Assembly (NCBI GenBank): GCA_000004695.1
Contig: CM000151.3
Location: 3,232,001 to 3,296,000 of the forward strand
Reading direction: 5' to 3'
Origin: Dictyostelium discoideum
Taxonomy: Eukaryota
DNA: 64,000 bases
The notes beneath the pieces are model-generated. The model searched no databases, was not told the origin of the DNA, and saw only the letters and a list, made by a program, of their open reading frames with translations. This document shows, in pieces, positions 8,778-54,263 of this stretch. Position 1 is the stretch's first letter. Each line of letters opens with the position of its first letter. A program made the translations under genes and the position numbers.

Positions 8778-10129
8778 ATGACAAATACCAATAACTACGA
8801 TGAAGAAAAAGATGAAGATGGAGAAAATGATGACTTATTAAATTATATTATAAATGGATTAATATTTGATATTGATAAATTAGAAAAAGAGATTATTGAA
8901 TTACAAGAAACTAAAACATCCACAACTCCAGCTTCAACAACACCAACTTCAACAACACCAAGATCAAAATCCTCATCGGACTTACAACAATCAGAATCCC
9001 ACCAACAACAACAACAACAACCACAAAATAAATCACAAACACCAAACTATAAAGAAGAATTAAATAATGTTACAAATTTAATAATACAAGAATTTGAACA
9101 ATCTAAAATTTCATCATTAGCAACCAATAATAATATTAATAATAATAAGAGGATAACAATACCTGATAATCATTCAAATAATCCTGATAAACTATTAGAA
9201 ATTCAATTAATTAATAAAATATTTGATATAAGTAAAGCATTTGATGGTAAATCAAATAATTTAGTCTCCTCTTTTCAAAATTGTACAAATAATAATAATA
9301 ATAATAATAATAACACTGACAACAACAACAATAACAATATTTCAAATAATAATAATAATAACAATGTTCCGACATTACAACCACTATCTTTTAATAATAG
9401 AAATAATTTAGTAAATGGTAATATTAGTAGCAGCAGTAGTAGTAATAGTAGTAATAATAATATTGGTAGTAGTAATAGTAACAATGTAACAATAGGTAGT
9501 TTAAGGGATTTGAATAAAATTCAACCACAAAGTTTAAATGAATTTGGTGAATGGAAATCATTAATTGATGAAGAATTATCAGATCTCTATACATTGGTTA
9601 AAGAATTAAAACGTAAAATACCTTCAAATACTAGAACAACAAGTTCTAATAATATAACTGATTCTCCTGTGGTATGTTTATTTTTTTTTTTTTTTTTTTT
9701 TTTTTCCAGAAATAATAATCATTCATACTAACTATATTTCTTTTTTCTTTTTTTTAATAAAAAAATAGTCTAAAGGTAGAAATAAAGATTTATATTTGTA
9801 TAATAATACTTTTACAAACATTTTACAATTAAAAAATGTAAACATTATTTATATTTCCAATAATAATCTTTTAATAATATTATTTAATTAACATTTTTAT
9901 TTTATTTTTTTAATTATAGGATTTAGTATCAATGATCCAAAGTCCAATGTTCAAAGATAATGAATATAATAAACATAATATTGGTAGTGATTCATATAGT
10001 AGTAATAATAATAGTAATAATAATTTATCAAATCTTAAAGATGATGGAACCTCAACAAATACAGCGGGTGGTGGTTCACCAAATAAAAAGAGTGTAAAAC
10101 AATTAGTATTATTATTTTCCCCATAAAAT
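8778..10129 (+). CDS. Asn/Ser/Gln-rich hypothetical protein. Proposed 2 exons join(8778..9671,9920..10129).
   Basis: The 317-aa ORF runs into a poly(T) tract only after a canonical GTATGT donor at 9672. An in-frame (phase 0) TTATAG acceptor at 9918-9919 continues the frame into the 9932..10126 ORF (DLVSMIQSPMFKDNEY...) to TAA at 10127-10129. Low-complexity protein; no family recognised. Confidence 0.45.
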
Positions 10130-12114: not shown

Positions 12115-13202
12115 AGTTTAAAAAAAAACTGAAAATATAAAAAAGTCCCAGACCAGTTTAAACAATCGATTTATTAATTAAAAAAAAAAAAAAAAAAAAA
12201 AATGAAAAAAAAAAAAAAAAAAAAAAAAATGAAAATGAAATTGAAAATGAACACTTTCGTTTAAAACTTTTTTTTATTTTTAATAATTCTAATAGTATTA
12301 TTATTATTACTAATTTATTTTAATATTACATTTATTCACTAAATAAATAAATAAGTAAATGAATAAATAAATGAATGAATAAATAAAAAATATATAAATA
12401 TATTTGTTTTTTATTTTTTATTTTTTTTATTTTTTATTTTTTTTTTGACATATTTTTTTGTTTTAAAATAAATAATTTTTTTTTTTTCCTGGTGTTTTTT
12501 TTTTACTATCTGTTTTTAATCATAAAAAAGATGGTTTGTTAGATGTATAGAATAGGACTGGTTTTAATAATTCTAAATAAATGATTGACAATGAAATATT
12601 TGATAATGATTAAAAATAAACTCTTTATTTATTTATTTTTTTAAATTTAAATTTAAAAAAAAAAAAAATCTAAAATTCTTTTTTAATTTAATTCTATTAT
12701 CGATATTTATGTTTGGATTATATCAATTCAATAAATATATTAGTATCATAATTTTTTAATTAATAATTTACTTATTTGAGAAGAAAAAAAAAAAAAAAAA
12801 AAAAAAAAAAGAAAAAATTAAAAAAACTGAATGGTTACACATTTTTTTTAAATATTATTTTTTACTCTCGAATTAATATGAGATTTTGCGGTTATGAATA
12901 ATAAATTTATCATTCGAAAATGTTAATGCTAAAAAAGCCTCTAAAAAATCAATATTTGATCATTGAAATAAAAAAAAATTTAAAAATAAATGAACTGGTA
13001 TAAAAAAAATTTTTTCAGAAAAAAAAATTGGTGAGGAAAAAAAAAAAAAAAAAAAATAAAAATAAATTAAATTAGGTAAAATTAAAATCAAATTAATAAA
13101 CGTGTTCATTATTTTTTTAGTTTTCATAAAAAAATTTAATACAAATAAAATTAAAATAAATAATGAATAAAAAAAATTGGTGGGAAAATAAAGATTTTAA
13201 AA

Positions 13203-44481: not shown

Positions 44482-44847
44482 TTATTTAAACAAATTTTGA
44501 ATTGAACAGTAGTTCGACTGTCTAGAGGAAATTATGGAATTTTTAGGATCTACCAAATGTTTAGGTTTTCTACCTCTTTTAAATTGATCTGGATTGGTAC
44601 AAGCGGGACATTCTTGGTCTTTGCAAAGATTTTTGTGACACTTTTCATGTCTACGACGGTGTTTTGTGTGGCAGAGGAAAGTGCAATCAGAGTGGCGGCA
44701 CATTACCATTGGTTTATTTGAAGCAGATTTATTTCTTACAGCACCTGCATGTTTCTTGGTAATATGTCTTGAGAGTGAGCTAGCGTAACCATAAGACATG
44801 CTGCAAAATTTTTGGGTACATTTGTAAGCACCTTTTTCAGTTTTCAT
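44482..44847 (-). CDS. Small Cys/His-rich, basic protein (121 aa), putative zinc-finger-like
   Basis: MKTEKGAYKCTQKFCSMSYGYASSLSRHITKKHAG... has a C-x4-C...H-x4-H arrangement, then C-x4-C...C-x7-H-x4-H and CKDQECPAC. Composition is not low-complexity. The fold and function are not established. Confidence 0.4.
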   Translation of the reverse strand: MKTEKGAYKCTQKFCSMSYGYASSLSRHITKKHAGAVRNKSASNKPMVMCRHSDCTFLCHTKHRRRHEKCHKNLCKDQECPACTNPDQFKRGRKPKHLVDPKNSIISSRQSNYCSIQNLFK

Positions 44848-45536
44848 TATTATTATTGTTATTTAAAAAAAAAATTAGAGATATATAGAAAAAAAAAAAA
44901 AAAAAAAAAAATAATATAGATTATAGAGATATATAATAAGAAAAATAAATAAAAATAAATAAATAAAATTGTTTAAAAAAAAAGTAATACATTTTTTTTT
45001 TTTATTTTTTATTTTTTTTTTTTCAAAATCATAGTTGTGTTGAATTTAATTAAAAACTAGTTAAATATGGGACTAAGATGTGGTAAATTTTTTTTTTCAT
45101 TTTTATTATCATTATTTTTTTGCACTGATAATTATTTGAAAAGGAATAAAATAATTGCGATATAATTTACAAATATAAATATATGTAAGTGAGTATACTA
45201 GTATTTTTTTTTTTTTTTTTAATTTTTTTTTTTTTTAAATTAATTAAAAAAGTGTTCAATTATATATTTATTTTGATTTTGATTTTAAGTTAAGTGAATT
45301 GAATTCTTCTTTTTAATAGTGCTTTTTTGATTTTTTTCACTATATATATTTTTTTTTTTACAATTTTTATTGTAAAGATATTTTTTTTTTTTTTTTTTTA
45401 AAATAAAAAAAGGTTTGAAACTATCATATCTGCCCAATATCTCTAGGGTTTTAAAAATTTCCATTCATATATTTTTTGTAATTATCTTTATTTAAGTTTT
45501 GTCTAATTAAATGCCTAGATAAAATGGAGTCCAAAG

Positions 45537-45568
<32 letters not shown>

Positions 45569-45775
45569 AAAAATAAATAAAATCATTTTATATCTTTCTC
45601 ATTGTTTGAATAAAAAACAAAACAAATTATTTTATATCTTTCTCATTGCTTAGATTGGGATTTTTATAATTATTTTTTTAAAATTAAATTGTTAAATTTT
45701 TTTTTACTGATCAAAATTTTTTCATATCTTTTGAAAAAAAAAAAATAAAAAAAATCTTAAAAATATAAATAATAT

Positions 45776-46098
45776 TCATTTTAATTGTAACAACTGGTGG
45801 TCGGTGTCATCAGTGTTAGTTTTTCCTAATGATTTCTTTATTGTATTGGTTATTGCTGCTGAAGTTATTGGTGTTGTAATGTTGGGTGATGATGGTGGTG
45901 TCGAATGGTTATTTAATTGTTGTTGAGATTGTTGATTTATTAATTGAATGTGTTGTTGAAGAAGTTGATTTTGTTTATCTATTACCTGCTGCTGTTCCCT
46001 TATTTGACGTTGCTGTTCATTGAATGTTGATACCTGTGGTTGTTGTTGTTGTTCCTCATTATCCTGTTGTTGAGATTCATCATTAGCAATATATTCAA
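45776..46098 (-). pseudogene. Gln-rich ORF remnant, 5'-truncated by/at the dispersed repeat, paralogous to 17763..18130
   Basis: Reverse strand reads IEYIANDESQQQDNEEQQQQQPQVSTFNEQQRQIREQQQVIDKQNQLLQQHIQLINQQSQQQLNNHSTPPSSPNITTPITSAAITNTIKKSLGKTNTDDTDHQLLQLK* with stop at 45776-45778. There is no in-frame ATG; the frame runs into the repeat core upstream. Confidence 0.3.
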
Positions 46099-46409
46099 TT
46101 TAATTGATGACCGTAGCCCTATCGCGTTTTTATTATTTTGTATATATTTATTACTGAGGTTGAATTAGAAACCTAGTTCTTTTTATAGTTAACAGATTTG
46201 AGCGAACTACTTCAACCTCAGCCGATAGGGTTAGATCCAATTTAAACTACAATATTATATTATTTTAATTTTATTCTAATTAATTATTATTTTCTTTTTA
46301 ATTAAATTATTTTTGAATTTATATTATTATTTTATGTGGTGATTTTGTGTGACATTTTTTTAATATCTGGTATCTAATATCTATTATGAAAACTTTTGTG
46401 AAATTAAAA

Positions 46410-46469
<60 letters not shown>

Positions 46470-46500
46470 AAAATTAAATTTAATTTAAAATTAATTAAAT
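46090..46500 (-). repeat. Dispersed repeat family, copy 2 (palindromic core 46100-46250), containing a ~48-nt poly(T) tract
   Basis: Reverse complement of 17340-17640 (see copy 1). The poly(T) at 46421-46468 produces the spurious ORF 46319..46528. Confidence 0.55.
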
Positions 46501-46807
46501 TACAACGGGAGAAAACCCCTTTAAACAAAACAATAAGGATGGAGGTGGATTAAAAAAACTCTTTTTGTCCCATAGTAAAACACTATTTTTAGTCAAAAAA
46601 AAAAAAAAATCAAATAATTTCAAACATATTATTTAAAAGTTTAAATTTTTTTATTTTTTTTTTATATTTTTTATTTATTTTTTATATCTCCTACTTTTAT
46701 TAAATTAAAAAAAAATAATCCAAATTATTTTCTTTTTTAATTATTATTACTCTTTTTTTTTTTTTTTTTTTTTAGAACAAAAACAATTTACAAAAACTTT
46801 GCTAAAA

Positions 46808-48823
46808 TTAATTTTTCATATATAACTCTTTGATTTTATAAAATAGTTCAGAGTCATTGACATCGTCTGGTAATTGATAGTTTGGATCATTTAATAAATT
46901 TGATAAAATTTGTCTTGGAATTTTACCAACTTTTGTTTTTGGTAATTGGTTAATAACTATTATTTTTTTTAAGACTGCCAGTGATTCAATATCTTGCGTG
47001 ATGATATTATTAATTTCATTTTGTAATTTATTTAAATCAATTGATGGATTTTCTTTTAATACCAATATACCAATCGGTGCAGTACGACAATCTGGACTTA
47101 AAATACCAATAGAACAACATTCTAAAACTGATGGATGTTTTAAAATTGATGTGTCAATTGTATTTAATTGAATTTTATTACAACTTATCTTAATTTGATC
47201 ATCTGATCTTGAAACAATTGTATAAAATCCTCTTTGATCTATATAACCTAAATCACCTGAATCATAGTAACCTGGAAACCTTGTAAATAGTTGTTTAAAC
47301 TTTTCATCATTTTTATAAAATGTAATTGCAAAACTGGGTGGCATTGGTAGTTTAAATGCAACTAAACCAATTTCATTTGAATTCAAAACTTCACCTTCTT
47401 CTGAAAGTATTGATGGTCTAATATAAATTGATGGTACGCCAGTGGCTCTATAAGGAATATTTAAAGCATGGACACTAATAAATGAAGTTACGCCAATTTC
47501 ACTTTGACCGTATACTCTTAAACATTTTATTTTTAACTTTTGTTCAATGTATTCTGGAATTGATTCTTCAATTACTTCACCGCCACACCATATTTCTTTT
47601 AAATTTGATAAATCATACTTAGAACGTACAATTGTTCCTTCAGGATCAGTTTTAATAAGGTATCTAAATACAGATGGGGATGGAAATGTATGTGTTACTT
47701 TATGTTTTACAATAGCTATCCATAAATCATCTTCTATATGTTCGTTTTTTATAATACCACCTTCATACATTACCAAGGTGTTTCCTCCAGATAATAAACC
47801 ATAAAAGAAACCATGAAATGATACCCACCCAATATTTGCATTTGAAAATACAATTTGAGGTATATCTGATTCTTTACGGAATGTATAGTATTTAATACCA
47901 ACCATATGCGGACCATTACTTCTTACAACAGCTTTGGTATTACCAGTTGTGCCACTTGTATAAAGTATATATAATGGATGACTTGATTCTACTGGTACAT
48001 ATTCATAAAATGGTGATTGATTATTTTCTTTTAATTTTTTAATTTCATCATACCAACTTAATGTATTTGGAATAGTTGGAATATTTTGAACTTTTTTTAA
48101 TTTTGTTTCATCCAAAACTTCATTTCTAAATAGAGTAATTACATTACTTGGTTTAAAAGTTGATAATTCAATTGCTTCTTTTAAATTTGGTGTAAATGTA
48201 ATGATTTCGTCATTAAAAATACCATAATTTGTTGTAATTATTAATTTTGGTGTAATTGTTTCGATTCTATCTATTAAACTTTTAACCGAATAACCATCGA
48301 ATAATGTACATTGAGTTGCACCAATACGAGCACATGATAACATTGCAATTAATGGTTCTAATGTATTTGCCATAAATATTAAAACATTATCATTTTTTGA
48401 AACATTTAAGTTTAAAAGAACTCTTGAAAATTTACATACTTTTTCATATAATTGATAATAGGTTAATTTAATTGTTTTCTTTAAATATGGACATTCATAA
48501 ATTAATGCATCTTGATCTCTTTTAGCAGGATTTTTAATATGAATGTCTAATAAATTATAACATGTATTTAATTCACCACCTTTAAACCAATCTGGATATA
48601 TTTCATCGCCACTATAAACTTTATCATACATTTTTTCCCTTTTATTTTTAAAAATCTTAGTTTTTGTTTTAATTTTAATATCTCTTTTTTAACAAAGAAA
48701 AAAAAAGATATATATTTACCAAAAAACATTCTTTTTAGCAACCTCATCCCAAAAAGCTTCTGGATTAGAATTTGAATAACTGTTATCATTTAAATAATCA
48801 AAAGGATCACTAAGTTTATACAT
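46808..48823 (-). CDS. Acyl/acetyl-CoA synthetase-like adenylate-forming enzyme (ACSS/PrpE-like), paralogue 1, ~644 aa. Exons complement(join(46808..48638,48720..48823)).
   Basis: Main ORF has the AMP-binding motif YTSGTTGNTKAV, YGQSE, the hinge DQIKISCNKIQ and C-terminal PKTKVGKIPR (A10 Lys). The first exon was found by eye: MYKLSDPFDYLNDNSYSNSNPEAFWDEVAKKNVFW, which is the PEAFW...W N-terminal signature of acetyl-CoA synthetases. Donor TG|GTAAAT at 48719 (phase 2); acceptor AAAAG at 48639-48640 gives W-E-K-M-Y-D-K-V... Total 1935 nt. Confidence 0.8.
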
Positions 48824-49961
48824 ATTTGTTTTTAATTATTTAATAAAATGAAAATGAAAAATTAAATATAATAAAATACAAATGAAATATTAAAAAAAAA
48901 AAAGAAAAAAAAAATTAATAATACTAAATCATGGAAAAAAAAAATTTATACATAAAAATAAATTTTATTGCACCCGTCATTAAAAATTATTCATATTATG
49001 AATATCCTAAATTACAAAAAGTGAGTAAACTAGAATTATGAAATGAATAAAATTAAATAAAAAAAATATGTCCACTAATAATTTCAATTAAGATTATTTA
49101 AAAGATACATGAAAAAGGTTTATTTAAAATCTCCAAATTTATTCCTACTACTTTTTTTTACATATACCATAATTCATAATAAAAAAAAATAAGAAATTAA
49201 TGTCGCAATAAAAAATATAAATAAATAAAATAATATGGAGAATTTTTTGGGAAAGTGCAAAAATTCTAATGAAAAAAAAAAAAATTCTTATTGTTTGTTA
49301 GATAATATTTTTATATAATAAAATTTTTAATAAACTAATATCAATTTCTAATTAATAATTAATCACACTTTATTATTAAATTATCATAAAATAATTAAAA
49401 AGAATCTGGCCATAAAAAAAATATATTTTAATAAATTAAAAATTGAAAAAATCTTATATTATTTAATTAGAATTGAATATTAATTTGTCATTAAATTATA
49501 AAAAATTTATTGATTTACCATATTGTGAGAAATTTTACTATTGTAATTTCTCATTTTTTAAAACATAAAACTATAATTTAATAATATACAACAATTAATA
49601 GGAAATAATACTATTGAAATTTCTCATTTTTTAAAACATTAAACTATAGTTTAATATATTGTAGATTATTAAAAACTATAATAAAATGATAAAAAATAAT
49701 GGGTGTACAATAAATATTTAAATAAAAAATATTAAAATATAAGAATTTTTATTTTTTTTTAAATAATTTAACATTTTACTAGGTTTTTTTTTCCCGTGCA
49801 AGATATTTTTTTTTTTTTTTTTTTAAATTAAAAAAAGGTTTGAAATTATCATATCTGCCCAATATCTATAGGGTTTTAAAAATTTTCATTCATATATTTT
49901 TTGTAATTATCTTTATTTAAGTTTTGTCTAATTAAATGCCTAGATAAAATGGAGTCCAAAG

Positions 49962-49999
<38 letters not shown>

Positions 50000-50689
50000 A
50001 AATATAAATAGAATCATTTTATATCTTTCTCATTGTTTGAATTAAAAACAAAACAAATTATTTTATATCTTTCTCATTGCTTAGATTGGGATTTTATAAT
50101 TATTTTTTTAAAATTAAATTGTTAAATTTTTTTTTACTGATCAAAATTTTTTCATATCTTTTGAAAAAAAAAAAATAAAAAAAAATCTTAAAAATATAAA
50201 TAAATATTCATTTTAATAACCAAACAGTCTAGTTTTTATTTTTATTTGCAGTTTTTTAAGAAAAAAAAATTTAAAAAAATTTATCTATTTTTCCTTATTT
50301 TCTCTATTTTTTTTTTTTTTTAAGGAATATCTCTTTAGTGGTGATAAAAAATAAAAAAAGGATAGAATCCAAAAAATATGGATAATTAATTAATAATTTG
50401 GATATATGTAAAATAATAAGGAAGGAGGTGGATTAAAAAAACTCTTTTCGTCCCATAGTAAAACACTATTTTTAGTCAAAAAAAAAAAATAATTAAAAAA
50501 AAAAAATCAAAAAAAAAAAAATCAAATAATTTCAAACATATTATTTAAAAGTTTAAATTTTTTTATTTTTTTTTTATATTTTTTATATATTTTTTATATC
50601 TCCTACTTTTATTAAATTAAAAAAAAAATAATCCAAATTATTTTCTTTTTTAATTATTATTGTTGGAGGGAATTTTCCATAAAATTTCA

Positions 50690-51148
50690 CTACAGTAGCG
50701 TAGTGAATTTTATTATTTAATTTGACTACGCTGCTGTAGTGAATTCCTATTGACGGTGCGTTCATGAAGTTAAACCTGGGTGGTGTGTGTTACACAATAT
50801 ACCGTGTGAGAATTCACAATAAGCAAATATTTCAATTTTATTGATGTCGTAGCCTTATTGCGGTTTTAATATTTTGGAAAAAATTAAAAACAGAGGTTGA
50901 AATAGAAACCTTAGTTCTTTTTTAAGTTACAAAATTTGTGCGACTTCTTTCAACTCAACCGATAAAGTTAGAATCCATTTTAACTACCAAATTATATTAT
51001 TTTTATTTTATTCTTATTTATTATATATTTCTTTTTTAATTAAATATTTTTGAAATTATAATAATATTTTAAGTGGGGAATTTGTGTGACATTTTTTTTA
51101 TATTTTGGTTTTTAAATATTATAATGAAACTTTTTGTAAAATTAAATA

Positions 51149-51207
<59 letters not shown>

Positions 51208-51260
51208 AAAATTAAATTTAATTTAAAATTAATTAAATTACAACGGGAGAAAACCCCTTT
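50690..51260 (-). repeat. Dispersed repeat family, copy 3 (core 50840-50990), with adjacent 18-bp-stem hairpin and a ~45-nt poly(T) tract
   Basis: gatgtcgtagccttattgcggtttt...cagaggttgaaatagaaacc...caactcaaccgataaagttagaatcc parallels copy 2 at ~85-90 percent. The poly(T) at 51160-51206 produces the spurious ORFs 51069..51266 and 51073..51291. Confidence 0.5.
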
Positions 51261-51545
51261 AAACAAAACAATAAGGATGGAGGTGGATTAAAAAAACTCT
51301 TTTTGTCCCATAGTAAAACACTATTTTTAGTCAAAAAAAAAAAAAAATCAAATAATTTCAAACATATTATTTAAAAGTTTAAATTTTTTTATTTTTTTTT
51401 TATATTTTTTATTTATTTTTTATATCTCCTACTTTTATTAAATTAAAAAAAAATAATCCAAATTATTTTCTTTTTTAATTATTATTACTCTTTTTTTTTT
51501 TTTTTTTTTTTAGAACAAAAACAATTTACAAAAACTTTGCTAAAA

Positions 51546-53561
51546 TTAATTTTTCATATATAACTCTTTGATTTTATAAAATAGTTCAGAGTCATTGACA
51601 TCGTCTGGTAATTGATAGTTTGGATCATTTAATAAATTTGATAAAATTTGTCTTGGAATTTTACCAACTTTTGTTTTTGGTAATTGGTTAATAACTATTA
51701 TTTTTTTTAAGACTGCCAGTGATTCAATATCTTGCGTGATGATATTATTAATTTCATTTTGTAATTTATTTAAATCAATTGATGGATTTTCTTTTAATAC
51801 CAATATACCAATCGGTGCAGTATGGCAATCTGGACTTAAAATACCAATAGAACAACATTCTAAAACTGATGGATGTTTTAAAATTGATGTGTCAATTGTA
51901 TTTAATTGAATTTTATTAAAACCTATCTTAATTTGATCATCTGATCTTGAAACAATTGTATAAAATCCTCTTTGATCTTTATAACCTAAATCACCTGAAT
52001 CGTAGTAACCTGGAAATCTTGTAAATAGTTGTTTAAACTTTTCATCATTTTTATAAAATGTAATTGTAAAACTGGGAGGCATTGGTAGTTTAAATGCAAC
52101 TAAACCAATTTCATTTGAATTCAAAACTTCACCTTCTTCTGAAAGTATTGATGGTCTAATATAAATTGATGGTACGCCAGTGGCTCTATAAGGAATATTT
52201 AAAGCATGGACACTAATAAATGAAGTTACGCCAATTTCACTTTGACCAAATACTCTTAAACATTTTATTTTTAACTTTTGTTCAATATATTCTGGAATTG
52301 ATTCTTCAATTACTTCACCACCACACCATATTTCTTTTAAATTTGATAAATCATACTTAGAACGTACAATTGTTCCTTCAGGATCAGTTTTAATAAGGTA
52401 TCTAAATACAGATGGGGATGGAAACGTATGTGTTACTTTATGTTTTACAATAGCTATCCATAAATCATCTTCCATATGTTTGTTTTTTATAATACCACCT
52501 TCATACATTACCAAGGTGTTTCCTCCAGATAATAAACCATAAAAGAAACCATGAAATGATACCCACCCAATATTTGTATGTGAAAATACAATTTGAGGTA
52601 TATCTGATTCTTTACGGAATGTATAGTATTTAATACCAACCATATGCGGACCATTACTTCTTACAACAGCTTTGGTATTACCAGTTGTGCCACTTGTATA
52701 AAGTATATATAATGGATGACTTGATTCTACTGGTACATATTCATAAAATGGTGATTGATTATTTTCTTTTAATTTTTTAATTTCATCATACCAACTTAAT
52801 GTATTTGGAATAGTTGGAATAGTTTGAACTTTTTTTAATTTTGTTTCATCCAAAACTTCATTTCTAAATAAAGTTATTACATTACTTGGTTTAAAAGTTG
52901 ATAATTCAATTGCTTCTTTTAAATTTGGTGTAAATGTAATGATTTCGTCATTTAAAATACCATAATTTGTTGTAATTATTAATTTTGGTGTAATTGTTTC
53001 GATTCTATCTATTAAACTTTTAACCGAAGAACCATCGAATAATGTACATTGAGTTGCACCAATACGAGCACATGATAACATTGCAATCAATGGTTCTAAT
53101 GTATTTGCCATAAATATTAAAACATTATCATTTTTTGAAACATTTAAATTTAAAAGTACTCTTGAAAATTCACATACTTTTTCATATAATTGATAATATG
53201 TTAATTTAATTGTTTTCTTTAAAAATGGACATTCATAAATTAATGCATCTTGATCTCTTTTAGCAGGATTTTTAATATGAATATCTAATAAATTATAACA
53301 TGTATTTAATTCACCACCTTTAAACCAATCTGGATATATTTCATCGCCACTATAAACTTTATCATACATTTTATCCCTTTTATTTTTAAAAATCTTAGTT
53401 TTTGTTTTAATTTTAATATCTCTTTTTTAACAAAGAAAAAAAAAGATATATATTTACCAAAAAACATTCTTTTTAGCAACCTCATCCCAAAAAGCTTCTG
53501 GATTAGACTTTGAATAACTATTATCATTTAAATAATCAAAAGGATCACTAAGTTTATACAT
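51546..53561 (-). CDS. ACS-like adenylate-forming enzyme, paralogue 2 (~98 percent identical to paralogue 1 at protein level). Exons complement(join(51546..53376,53458..53561)).
   Basis: Same architecture: exon 1 MYKLSDPFDYLNDNSYSKSNPEAFWDEVAKKNVFW, donor at 53457, acceptor AAAG at 53377-53378 giving W-D-K-M-Y-D. Only ~13 aa differences from paralogue 1 across 607 aa of the main exon. Confidence 0.8.
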
Positions 53562-54263
53562 ATTTGTTATTAATTATTTAATAAAATGAAAATGAAAAAT
53601 TAAATATAATAGTGCACAAACTCTAATGAAAAAAAAAAAAAAAAAAAAAAATTCTTATTGTTTGTTAGATAATATTTTTATATAATTAAAAATAAAAAAT
53701 TTTAATTAAAATAAATTAAATTATTTCCACTAAAATATTTTAGAAATTCTACACACCCCAGTGTGTTTTTTAATTTAATTTAATTTATTTTAATTAAAAT
53801 TTTTATTTTTATGTTGTTTGTTAAAAATGCTAATAATAAGTAAATATTTTTTTAAAGTGCTTGTTACGATTAAAATTAATTTTTTTTTTAAAGATTTTTC
53901 AACATTTGAAACTTATTAAAAAAAAAAAAAATTTTAATCATTACAAACAATATTTATATTATTATTATTTTTTTTATTTAATATTGATTAATCACAGTTT
54001 ATGCATTAAAGGAAATAAACAATAATTTATATCCGTCCTTATTATTTTTTTTGAATTTTTAACCTTTTTTTTAAAACAAAACTTCTAATGTAATCAAAAG
54101 GTAAAACACTATTTTTTATCAAACCAATAAAAAAAAAAAAAATATAATTAAATTTTTTTATTTTTTTATTTATTAAATTTAAAAAATAAATAATTCAAAT
54201 TTTTTTTTTTTTATTATTTTTTTTTCAAAAAATAAAAACAAATTTTTAAATTAAGTTTACTAA

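Follow-up and report, generated by a model that had tools for sequence, protein, structure and literature searches.

A young tandem duplication in an acetyl/propionyl-CoA-synthetase-like gene array of Dictyostelium discoideum, with a palindromic insertion and a probable reference-assembly artifact

Lineage-specific tandem duplicates, organized in birth-and-death arrays, have been described in gene families of Dictyostelium discoideum, the tgr genes among them (bioRxiv 10.1101/2025.10.22.684067). Here, we analyzed a 64,000-nucleotide stretch of chromosome 2 of strain AX4 (GenBank assembly GCA_000004695.1, contig CM000151.3, positions 3,232,001 to 3,296,000 of the forward strand; hereafter the window, with positions counted from its first letter), in which self-alignment and a listing of open reading frames (ORFs) revealed a minus-strand, head-to-tail array of at least seven acetyl/propionyl-coenzyme A (CoA)-synthetase-like genes. 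Our subject is the pair at the low-coordinate end of the array in the window, gene A (DDB_G0273365) and its paralog gene B (DDB_G0273229), together with the repeated and palindromic sequences that flank them. The window has a base composition of about 20% G+C and contains very long homopolymers. Two further systems bear on its interpretation. Tourist-like, or PIF-Harbinger-type, MITEs (miniature inverted-repeat transposable elements) are small and lack coding capacity; they carry terminal inverted repeats and are flanked by a target-site duplication of 3 bp (TWA). In Sanger sequencing, polymerase slippage at long homopolymers leads to out-of-phase base calls, and palindromes cause hard stops. 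The DNA transposons described in D. discoideum, which are little studied, belong to the Tdd, DDT, and Thug families (PMC5633606). Our comparisons suggest that this is the young end of an array evolving by birth and death, with a real duplication and a MITE-like insertion in B, and that an additional 727 bp in the reference sequence is probably not biological. The features that had made this locus look special, namely a nested triplication, a bracketed repeat insertion, and a repeat acting as recombination substrate, are best explained by an error of the reference assembly at the MITE-like palindrome.

Gene A (46808-48823, minus strand; main exon 46808-48631, exon-1 start codon at 48823) encodes a 644-residue protein that matches entry P0001 at 100%, and gene B (51546-53561, minus strand) encodes a protein 98% identical to it; each gene consists of one short first exon, a single intron, and the main exon. 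The array genes encode the ACAS_N, AMP-binding, and AMP-binding_C domains (Pfam E-values of 5e-51, 5e-12, and 1e-6, all above the gathering cut-offs), and by this domain architecture they are predicted acetyl/propionyl-CoA synthetases of the ANL superfamily. Their closest relatives outside the dictyostelids are bacterial propionyl-CoA synthetases (33-36% identity over 97-99% of the length), which supports the label "ACS-like" that an earlier reading made from the letters alone (hereafter the sequence-only reading) had given them. The family is strongly expanded in Dictyostelium, with many paralogs at 55-90% identity, and the array proteins, which match AX4 chromosome-2 genes at 100%, are annotated only as hypothetical or acetyl-CoA synthetase-like.

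Self-blastn aligned 46004-48916 with 50750-53653 (95.6% over 2924 nt) and 45375-45785 with 49800-50217 (96.2%), the latter being a 411-bp block that we term X. The similarity is not confined to the coding region and extends well into both flanks, reaching 96.2% in X, about 97% in a 230-bp segment termed S, and 97-100% in the promoter/5′ region up to 49323 in A and 53691 in B. The duplication boundaries lie at 45374/49800 on the left and 49323/53691 on the right. Copy A of the unit (45374-49323) comprises X, a dispersed repeat termed the R element, S, gene A, and its promoter, including a stretch (48872-49255) that is ancestral and was lost in B. Copy B (49800-53691 in its reference version) is about 710 bp shorter in the second assembly introduced below. 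The recent segmental duplication proposed by the sequence-only reading (about 3.5 kb) is supported, for a unit of roughly 3.5-4 kb that is somewhat longer than the bounds assigned to it (45350-48840 and 49790-53580). Along the two units the identity forms a mosaic, with X at 96-100%, unrelated sequence, a repeat at 75-86%, a stretch of exactly 100% over 600 bp, and the gene at about 98%. The two genes differ by about 1.7% at the nucleotide level (synonymous divergence, dS, 0.041; nonsynonymous divergence, dN, 0.010), and the resulting dN/dS of 0.25 indicates that both A and B stayed under purifying selection. The approximately 98% protein identity and the exon-1 difference gattagaatt/gattagactt noted earlier were both confirmed, the latter as an N18K change.

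The locus was compared with an independent assembly at chromosome scale, derived from a closely related isolate of D. discoideum (GCA_054883475.1, loci L001 and L002; hereafter the second assembly), and with two more divergent outgroup strains, ACTFIW (GCA_054859355.1, L003) and ACTFIY (GCA_054859205.1, L004). A literature search on the origin of these assemblies led to a preprint, not matched to the accessions by identifier, in which isolates of D. discoideum and cryptic species were assembled de novo from Nanopore data. In the second assembly, two genes whose proteins are identical to those of A and B stand between the same flanks and with their order kept, and this assembly shares the 30 coding differences between the two genes, the different sequences beside X in the two copies, and a promoter deletion in B. 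These observations refute the notion that a single gene was assembled twice, to which the high identity of the pair, including the 600 bp at 100%, had lent some appeal, and we give it practically no credence. Over 36772-59543 (about 23 kb), the second assembly matched the window at 99.6-99.9% identity with a sole structural difference, the lack of window positions 50754-51480; scattered single-nucleotide polymorphisms (SNPs) were seen, and apart from local clusters the remaining differences were almost only in homopolymer length. One cluster of 13 substitutions and 1-nt indels between AX4 and the second assembly, at 45195-45403, just left of the duplication boundary, may mark another part of the reference with low quality or else a polymorphism at this site.

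In both outgroup strains, a single terminal gene was found beside a gene for a 121-residue protein, and the duplication is accordingly lineage-specific, that is, derived. In the window, this neighbor is a Cys/His-rich ORF (44482-44847, minus strand) without a Pfam match, which adjoins the array and is kept as a gene in all three other strains. A neighbor-joining tree placed A and B together as sister to the terminal gene of ACTFIW, with a distance of 0.017 between A and B and of 0.076 to the ortholog. The flank in ACTFIW is collinear with the window up to about 45487 and continues straight to about 46725, so that the right part of X, the R element, and S are absent there, as they are from ACTFIY; of the X segment of A (45375-45785), the left 110-140 bp or so are ancestral and present in ACTFIW, and 45517-45785 is specific to the AX4 lineage. 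Taken together, the A/B tandem duplication is confirmed as real, present in the second assembly, and lineage-specific, and it represents the youngest step in the growth of the array, in agreement with the earlier view of the pair as a snapshot of that growth.

The two units are separated by a 476-bp filler (49324-49799), which holds a local 59-bp repeat (49529-49587 and 49602-49659) and had no homolog in the upstream region of B, the outgroups, or the rest of the window; against outgroup intergenic DNA it gave low-complexity AT-rich matches only. No dispersed repeat was found at either duplication boundary. The unrelated filler and the boundaries free of dispersed repeats suggest that the duplication arose by a non-homologous event or a replication-template switch and not by unequal crossing-over between repeats, and they lend no support to the proposal that the dispersed repeat served as recombination substrate. 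Next to X in B (49800-50217), a B-only sequence of 196 bp (U, 50218-50413) fills the position that the R element holds in A, and a microhomology, TTATT(G/A)TTTT, is present at one of the U/R junctions. At the other end of the unit, B lacks about 384 bp that A keeps (48872-49255 versus 53610-53624), the gap beginning about 49 bp upstream of the start codon. Since this promoter stretch is ancestral, being present in ACTFIW, and was lost from B, the expression of the two genes may differ. Upstream of gene B, a CACAC...GTGTG palindromic motif (53747-53775) was seen by eye in the opposite orientation in ACTFIW (reverse complement of its locus, 9458-9486), which corresponds either to a small inversion or just to the symmetry of the motif itself.

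In the reference, S occurs three times (46527-46748, 50410-50661, and 51265-51486; 96-100% identical), as had been observed in the sequence-only reading; in the second assembly, only two copies are present, one per unit. The copy in A (46537-46750) carries an empty target site, TTA, at 46744-46746. The genuine copy in B, S′ (50414-50659), is 96-98.7% identical to it, barring a poly-A expansion, and ends in TTA (50657-50659), after which the reference continues with a palindromic insertion (50660-50753) whose right arm is truncated and garbled. The hairpin that had been called perfect at 50690-50745 is indeed found in the reference, at 50686-50743, although its 19-bp stem contains one T/G mismatch. 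In the second assembly, a complete palindrome of 110 bp, TTGTTGTAGGGAATTTTCCATAAAATTTCACTACAGTAGCGTAGTGAATTTTATTATTTAATTTCACTACGCTACTGTAGTGAAATTTTATTGAAAATTCCCTACAACAA, contains this hairpin as its inner part. The element, with the termini TTGTTGTAGGG...CCCTACAACAA, is non-coding, its arms pair over 48 nt with one mismatch, and its calculated hairpin energy is -49.9 kcal/mol (z = -22). It is bordered on both sides by TTA, a target-site duplication, and removal of the element together with one TTA yields exactly the uninterrupted TTTTTTAATTA-TTA-TTACTC of A. The inverted repeats, the 3-bp target duplication of TWA type, and the paralogous empty site together make the element MITE-like. From this arrangement, we infer that the palindrome may be mobile, and the sequence indicates that it was inserted into the S of B after the duplication. 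The hairpin does not belong to the dispersed repeat; it is a separate 110-bp insertion with its own TTA duplication. A literature search on Dictyostelium MITEs returned nothing beyond general remarks about the Tdd, DDT, and Thug families. The palindrome could possibly be the first recognized member of an active D. discoideum MITE family with a TTA target-site duplication, and if several copies of it exist, they would be evidence of recent DNA-transposon (MITE) activity in this species.

The segment missing from the second assembly (50754-51480, 727 bp) consists of a copy of the dispersed repeat (R′, 50754-51196), a poly-T run, and the third S, and is a probable artifact of the reference assembly; the repeat copy that the sequence-only reading placed in B is thus present in the reference (with its palindrome, at 50754-51240) and missing from the second assembly. 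Compared with copy A, the reference sequence of B is 100% identical from the 3′ end of the gene through S to a poly-T run of about 57 nt, then falls to about 85%, and farther on to about 62-70%, with the drop from 100% to about 85% falling exactly at the homopolymer. The 284 bp at 51197-51480, including the third S, are 100% identical to A, whereas the genuine S′ is only about 97% identical, a divergence of about 3% that is typical of A and B. In a three-way comparison using the repeat copy at 17 kb as outgroup, R′ carried 50 private changes and the copy in A carried 2 (p = 6e-13), which argues that R′ is A's own sequence plus noise and not an independent member of the repeat family. In further support of this notion, mismatches in R′ equal the preceding (plus-strand) base of A in 43 of 61 cases (70%), against 61 of 173 (about 35%) in controls consisting of three real paralog comparisons (Fisher p = 2.5e-6). 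Among these mismatches, A<->T shifts at run boundaries predominate, and the direction of the neighbor-base shift fits n-1 slippage in a read entering from the gene side. At the join (50724-50747), inside the right arm of the palindrome, the assemblies differ by a cluster of five bases. The error pattern fits the slipped tail of a Sanger read that bridged a gap at the palindrome, and the third S and R′ are in the reference sequence but probably not in the genome.

As a description of the reference, the sequence-only reading is largely accurate, since everything it listed can be found in the letters; its account of the extra segment is less well supported. In the sequence-only reading, R′ was a separate, diverged family member inserted or recombined into B between two 230-bp copies, with the repeat acting as recombination substrate of array growth. 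The R element is truly dispersed, with a further copy at 17.2-18.1 kb and others on two other contigs, and the reference as written does read S′, hairpin, R′, S. Against this model, R′ shares the ancestral state with the outgroup copy against A at only 2 of about 270 sites, from which it follows that R′ descends from A's copy itself; the site counts of the three-way comparison likewise led us to reject R′ as an old independent family member. In addition, the R elements do not lie at the duplication boundaries, the B/C, C/D, and E/F junctions of the array are free of them, and R′ is not found in the second assembly. We consider this model very unlikely, and the supposedly bracketed insertion is better resolved into a separate hairpin element and 727 bp that bear the signature of a slipped, low-quality read. 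Alternatively, the second assembly might have deleted or collapsed the 727 bp, by assembler action or by loss in the strain, so that the reference structure would be ancestral. Repeated S copies could in principle promote such a deletion or collapse, yet recombination or collapse between S′ and S would remove the hairpin along with R′ and leave one plain S. The second assembly instead keeps the palindrome whole and symmetric at 110 bp, with a matching TTA to its left and right, and S is exactly restored upon its removal. The missing right arm cannot arise by deletion from the reference structure. Because no deletion from the reference can yield the complete palindrome and the matching TTA, the short form is bona fide and the reference is either derived from it or wrong; a deletion or collapse in the second assembly is, in our estimation, highly improbable.

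Several points weigh against an artifact and against the associated reading of the palindrome. Resolved into 40-bp steps, the fall in identity away from the homopolymer shows noise. The 110-bp palindrome had no further copy in the 64-kb window, six related loci (about 105 kb), or one metagenome scan, so that its status as a family member is read from its structure. The second assembly derives from a different isolate with SNPs, which leaves room for a structural variant specific to AX4. If the reference were correct, a rearrangement at the palindrome in AX4 would have copied the R-S portion of A into B by break-induced or template-switch repair, the triplication of S would be true, and the second assembly would show the ancestral state. 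Palindromes are break hotspots, the junction lies inside the right arm of the palindrome, and the 284 bp beside R′ are of A type without a single difference. However, private changes would then have to make up about 19% of R′ and be essentially lacking from A's copy and from the adjoining 284 bp; at 19% divergence, a tract of 284 bp would be free of any difference with a probability of about 1e-26. Moreover, neighbor-base shifts that start at a homopolymer are a sequencing signature and, to our knowledge, not a known mutational one. We regard such an AX4-specific rearrangement as unlikely. A more specific version, in which the 727 bp are real in AX4 because the palindrome broke and a template switch into copy A was followed by highly error-prone, frameshift-rich synthesis across the homopolymer, appears to us quite unlikely; if true, a hypermutated tract beside a perfectly copied one would provide a natural snapshot of palindrome-triggered mutagenic break-induced replication.

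Under the preferred reading of an assembly artifact, the 727 bp could have originated as follows. Sanger reads would have stopped at the palindrome with its 48-bp arms in B, and a read with its primer at gene A's 3′ end, where the two genes are identical, would have been recruited to B. Having crossed S and the approximately 57-nt homopolymer, this read would have slipped out of phase, and its degraded tail would have bridged the gap.

The R element of A (45786-46536, minus strand) consists of a 5′-truncated remnant of a Gln-rich ORF at 45786-46095 and a core with a palindrome at 46097-46245, together with an AT-rich stretch and, at 46415-46469, a run of poly-T. The remnant and the repeat had been correctly recognized in the sequence-only reading, but this material lies 3′ of genes A and B, which are on the minus strand, and not upstream as had been stated. 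A second copy in the window (17246-18129, plus strand) is 77-83% identical to that of A, and its ORF keeps the ATG and has an in-frame stop and a frameshift, while the copy in A lacks about 170 bp including the ATG. Together with the copies on two other contigs of the second assembly (L005 and L006; 75-97% identity), they define an element of about 0.75-1.15 kb with a small Gln-rich ORF (143 residues in the best copy), an imperfect palindrome of about 150 bp upstream of it, and an A/T run. The fullest copy (L005, 3176-4432; GCA_054883475.1, CM142509.1; ORF P0121, 143 residues) sits between tandem zf-B_box/FNIP genes, which is another tandem array. Alignment of the copies gave consistent ends, but no terminal inverted repeat, long terminal repeat, or target-site duplication, and the only ORF, of about 143 residues, showed no Pfam domain. 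The R element may represent either a mobile element or a small gene that has been copied repeatedly. A structured RNA in its palindromic core was rejected, as none of the 27 predicted pairs showed a compensatory change among four copies and Rfam gave no match in the region at gathering or permissive thresholds; the sole Rfam hit, mir-7131 at 16.6 kb, bears no sequence relationship to either the hairpin or the core of R. The suggestion from relaxed blastn that S is a terminal part of the R element was also dismissed, since other copies share only from about 46536 inward and S is not common to them. A tRNA scan of the window, bearing on a tRNA-targeted retroelement as the cause of repeated insertion, found no tRNAs.

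These elements can be ordered into a tentative history. The AX4 lineage would first have acquired, on the 3′ side of the terminal gene, about 0.7-1.2 kb of extra DNA made up of the right part of X, either U or R, and S. A unit of about 3.9 kb, comprising this 3′ flank, the gene, and the promoter, would then have been tandemly duplicated, with the 476-bp filler at the junction. Subsequently, the copies would have diverged by about 1.7% under purifying selection, B would have lost its roughly 384 bp of promoter, and the R element in A and U in B would have come to hold the same position; R may have replaced U, or U may have replaced R. The 110-bp MITE-like element would have entered the S of B in the same period, duplicating TTA.

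The remainder of the array (54264-64000), delineated by self-alignment, ORFs, and the tree, continues on the minus strand with gene C (main exon from 54264 to at least 56090), a broken pseudogene D (56746-58420; fragments of 93, 88, and 191 residues, with an internal deletion relative to E), gene E (main exon from 58882 to at least 60729), gene F (main exon from 61184 to at least 63040), and gene G (63592-64000), which is cut by the window end. Nucleotide distances rise from 1.7% for A/B through about 5% for E/F and about 9% for A/C to about 18% for A/E. Pseudogene D is annotated in the second assembly as fragments of 294 and 152 residues. Genes E and F (58809-60741 and 61106-63052) form a second fairly young pair, at 94% nucleotide identity (dS 0.12, dN/dS 0.29), and ACTFIW has four genes of the E/F type, which points to strain-variable copy number in this part of the array. 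A 52-bp inverted match of 94% identity connects the C/D spacer (56660-56709) with an intergenic position at 12169-12220.

Elsewhere in the window, Rfam matched the precursor of mir-7131, a Dictyostelium miRNA family, at 16645-16733; the matches fall on both strands and score 94 bits, above the gathering threshold, and palindromic repeats related to them occur close by (14938-15073 and 16569-16747). Multicopy miRNA loci are reported to sit in the thug-S DNA transposon (PMC6161686, PMC4894637), which the mir-7131 locus here may represent. Small minus-strand ORFs of 56-69 residues (13894-14064, 14689-14883, and 18257-18466) share signal-peptide-like N-termini (MLKFLI..LL..NAVNGQ) and conserved cysteines, and their family lies within a local duplication (14358-14916 and 18952-19504, 81% identity).

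The most immediate consequence of this analysis is one of quality control, as AX4-based work at DDB_G0273229/DDB_G0273365 on intergenic regulation, on recombination mediated by repeats, or on how the array grows would be misled by about 0.7 kb that the genome probably lacks. What is biologically real is an ordinary, if clean, birth-and-death case of a metabolic gene family, in which the young duplicate can be dated and one copy bears a promoter deletion.

Set beside known Sanger errors at long homopolymers and strong hairpins, the 727 bp resemble them in their onset at a poly-T run of about 57 nt, their neighbor-base mismatches, their decay, and the join within a palindrome with 48-bp arms, and they differ in that their origin as a read tail is deduced from the sequence pattern. 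The 110-bp palindrome is similar to Tourist-like MITEs in its size, its non-coding nature, its near-perfect arms, the TTA duplication in an AT-rich target, and the empty site in the paralog. Unlike these elements, it is in its entirety a foldback palindrome rather than a pair of short terminal inverted repeats around an unrelated core, and a single copy was found in the sequence searched; we know of no related autonomous element. With acetyl-CoA and propionyl-CoA synthetases, the array genes share the full three-domain architecture, from which they are set apart by the great expansion in Dictyostelium. Finally, the array resembles the birth-and-death arrays of the tgr genes in its head-to-tail paralogs of graded age, its broken pseudogene D, and its strain-variable copy number, but the present family encodes a metabolic-type ANL enzyme and not a recognition protein, and its young copies A and B are under purifying selection.

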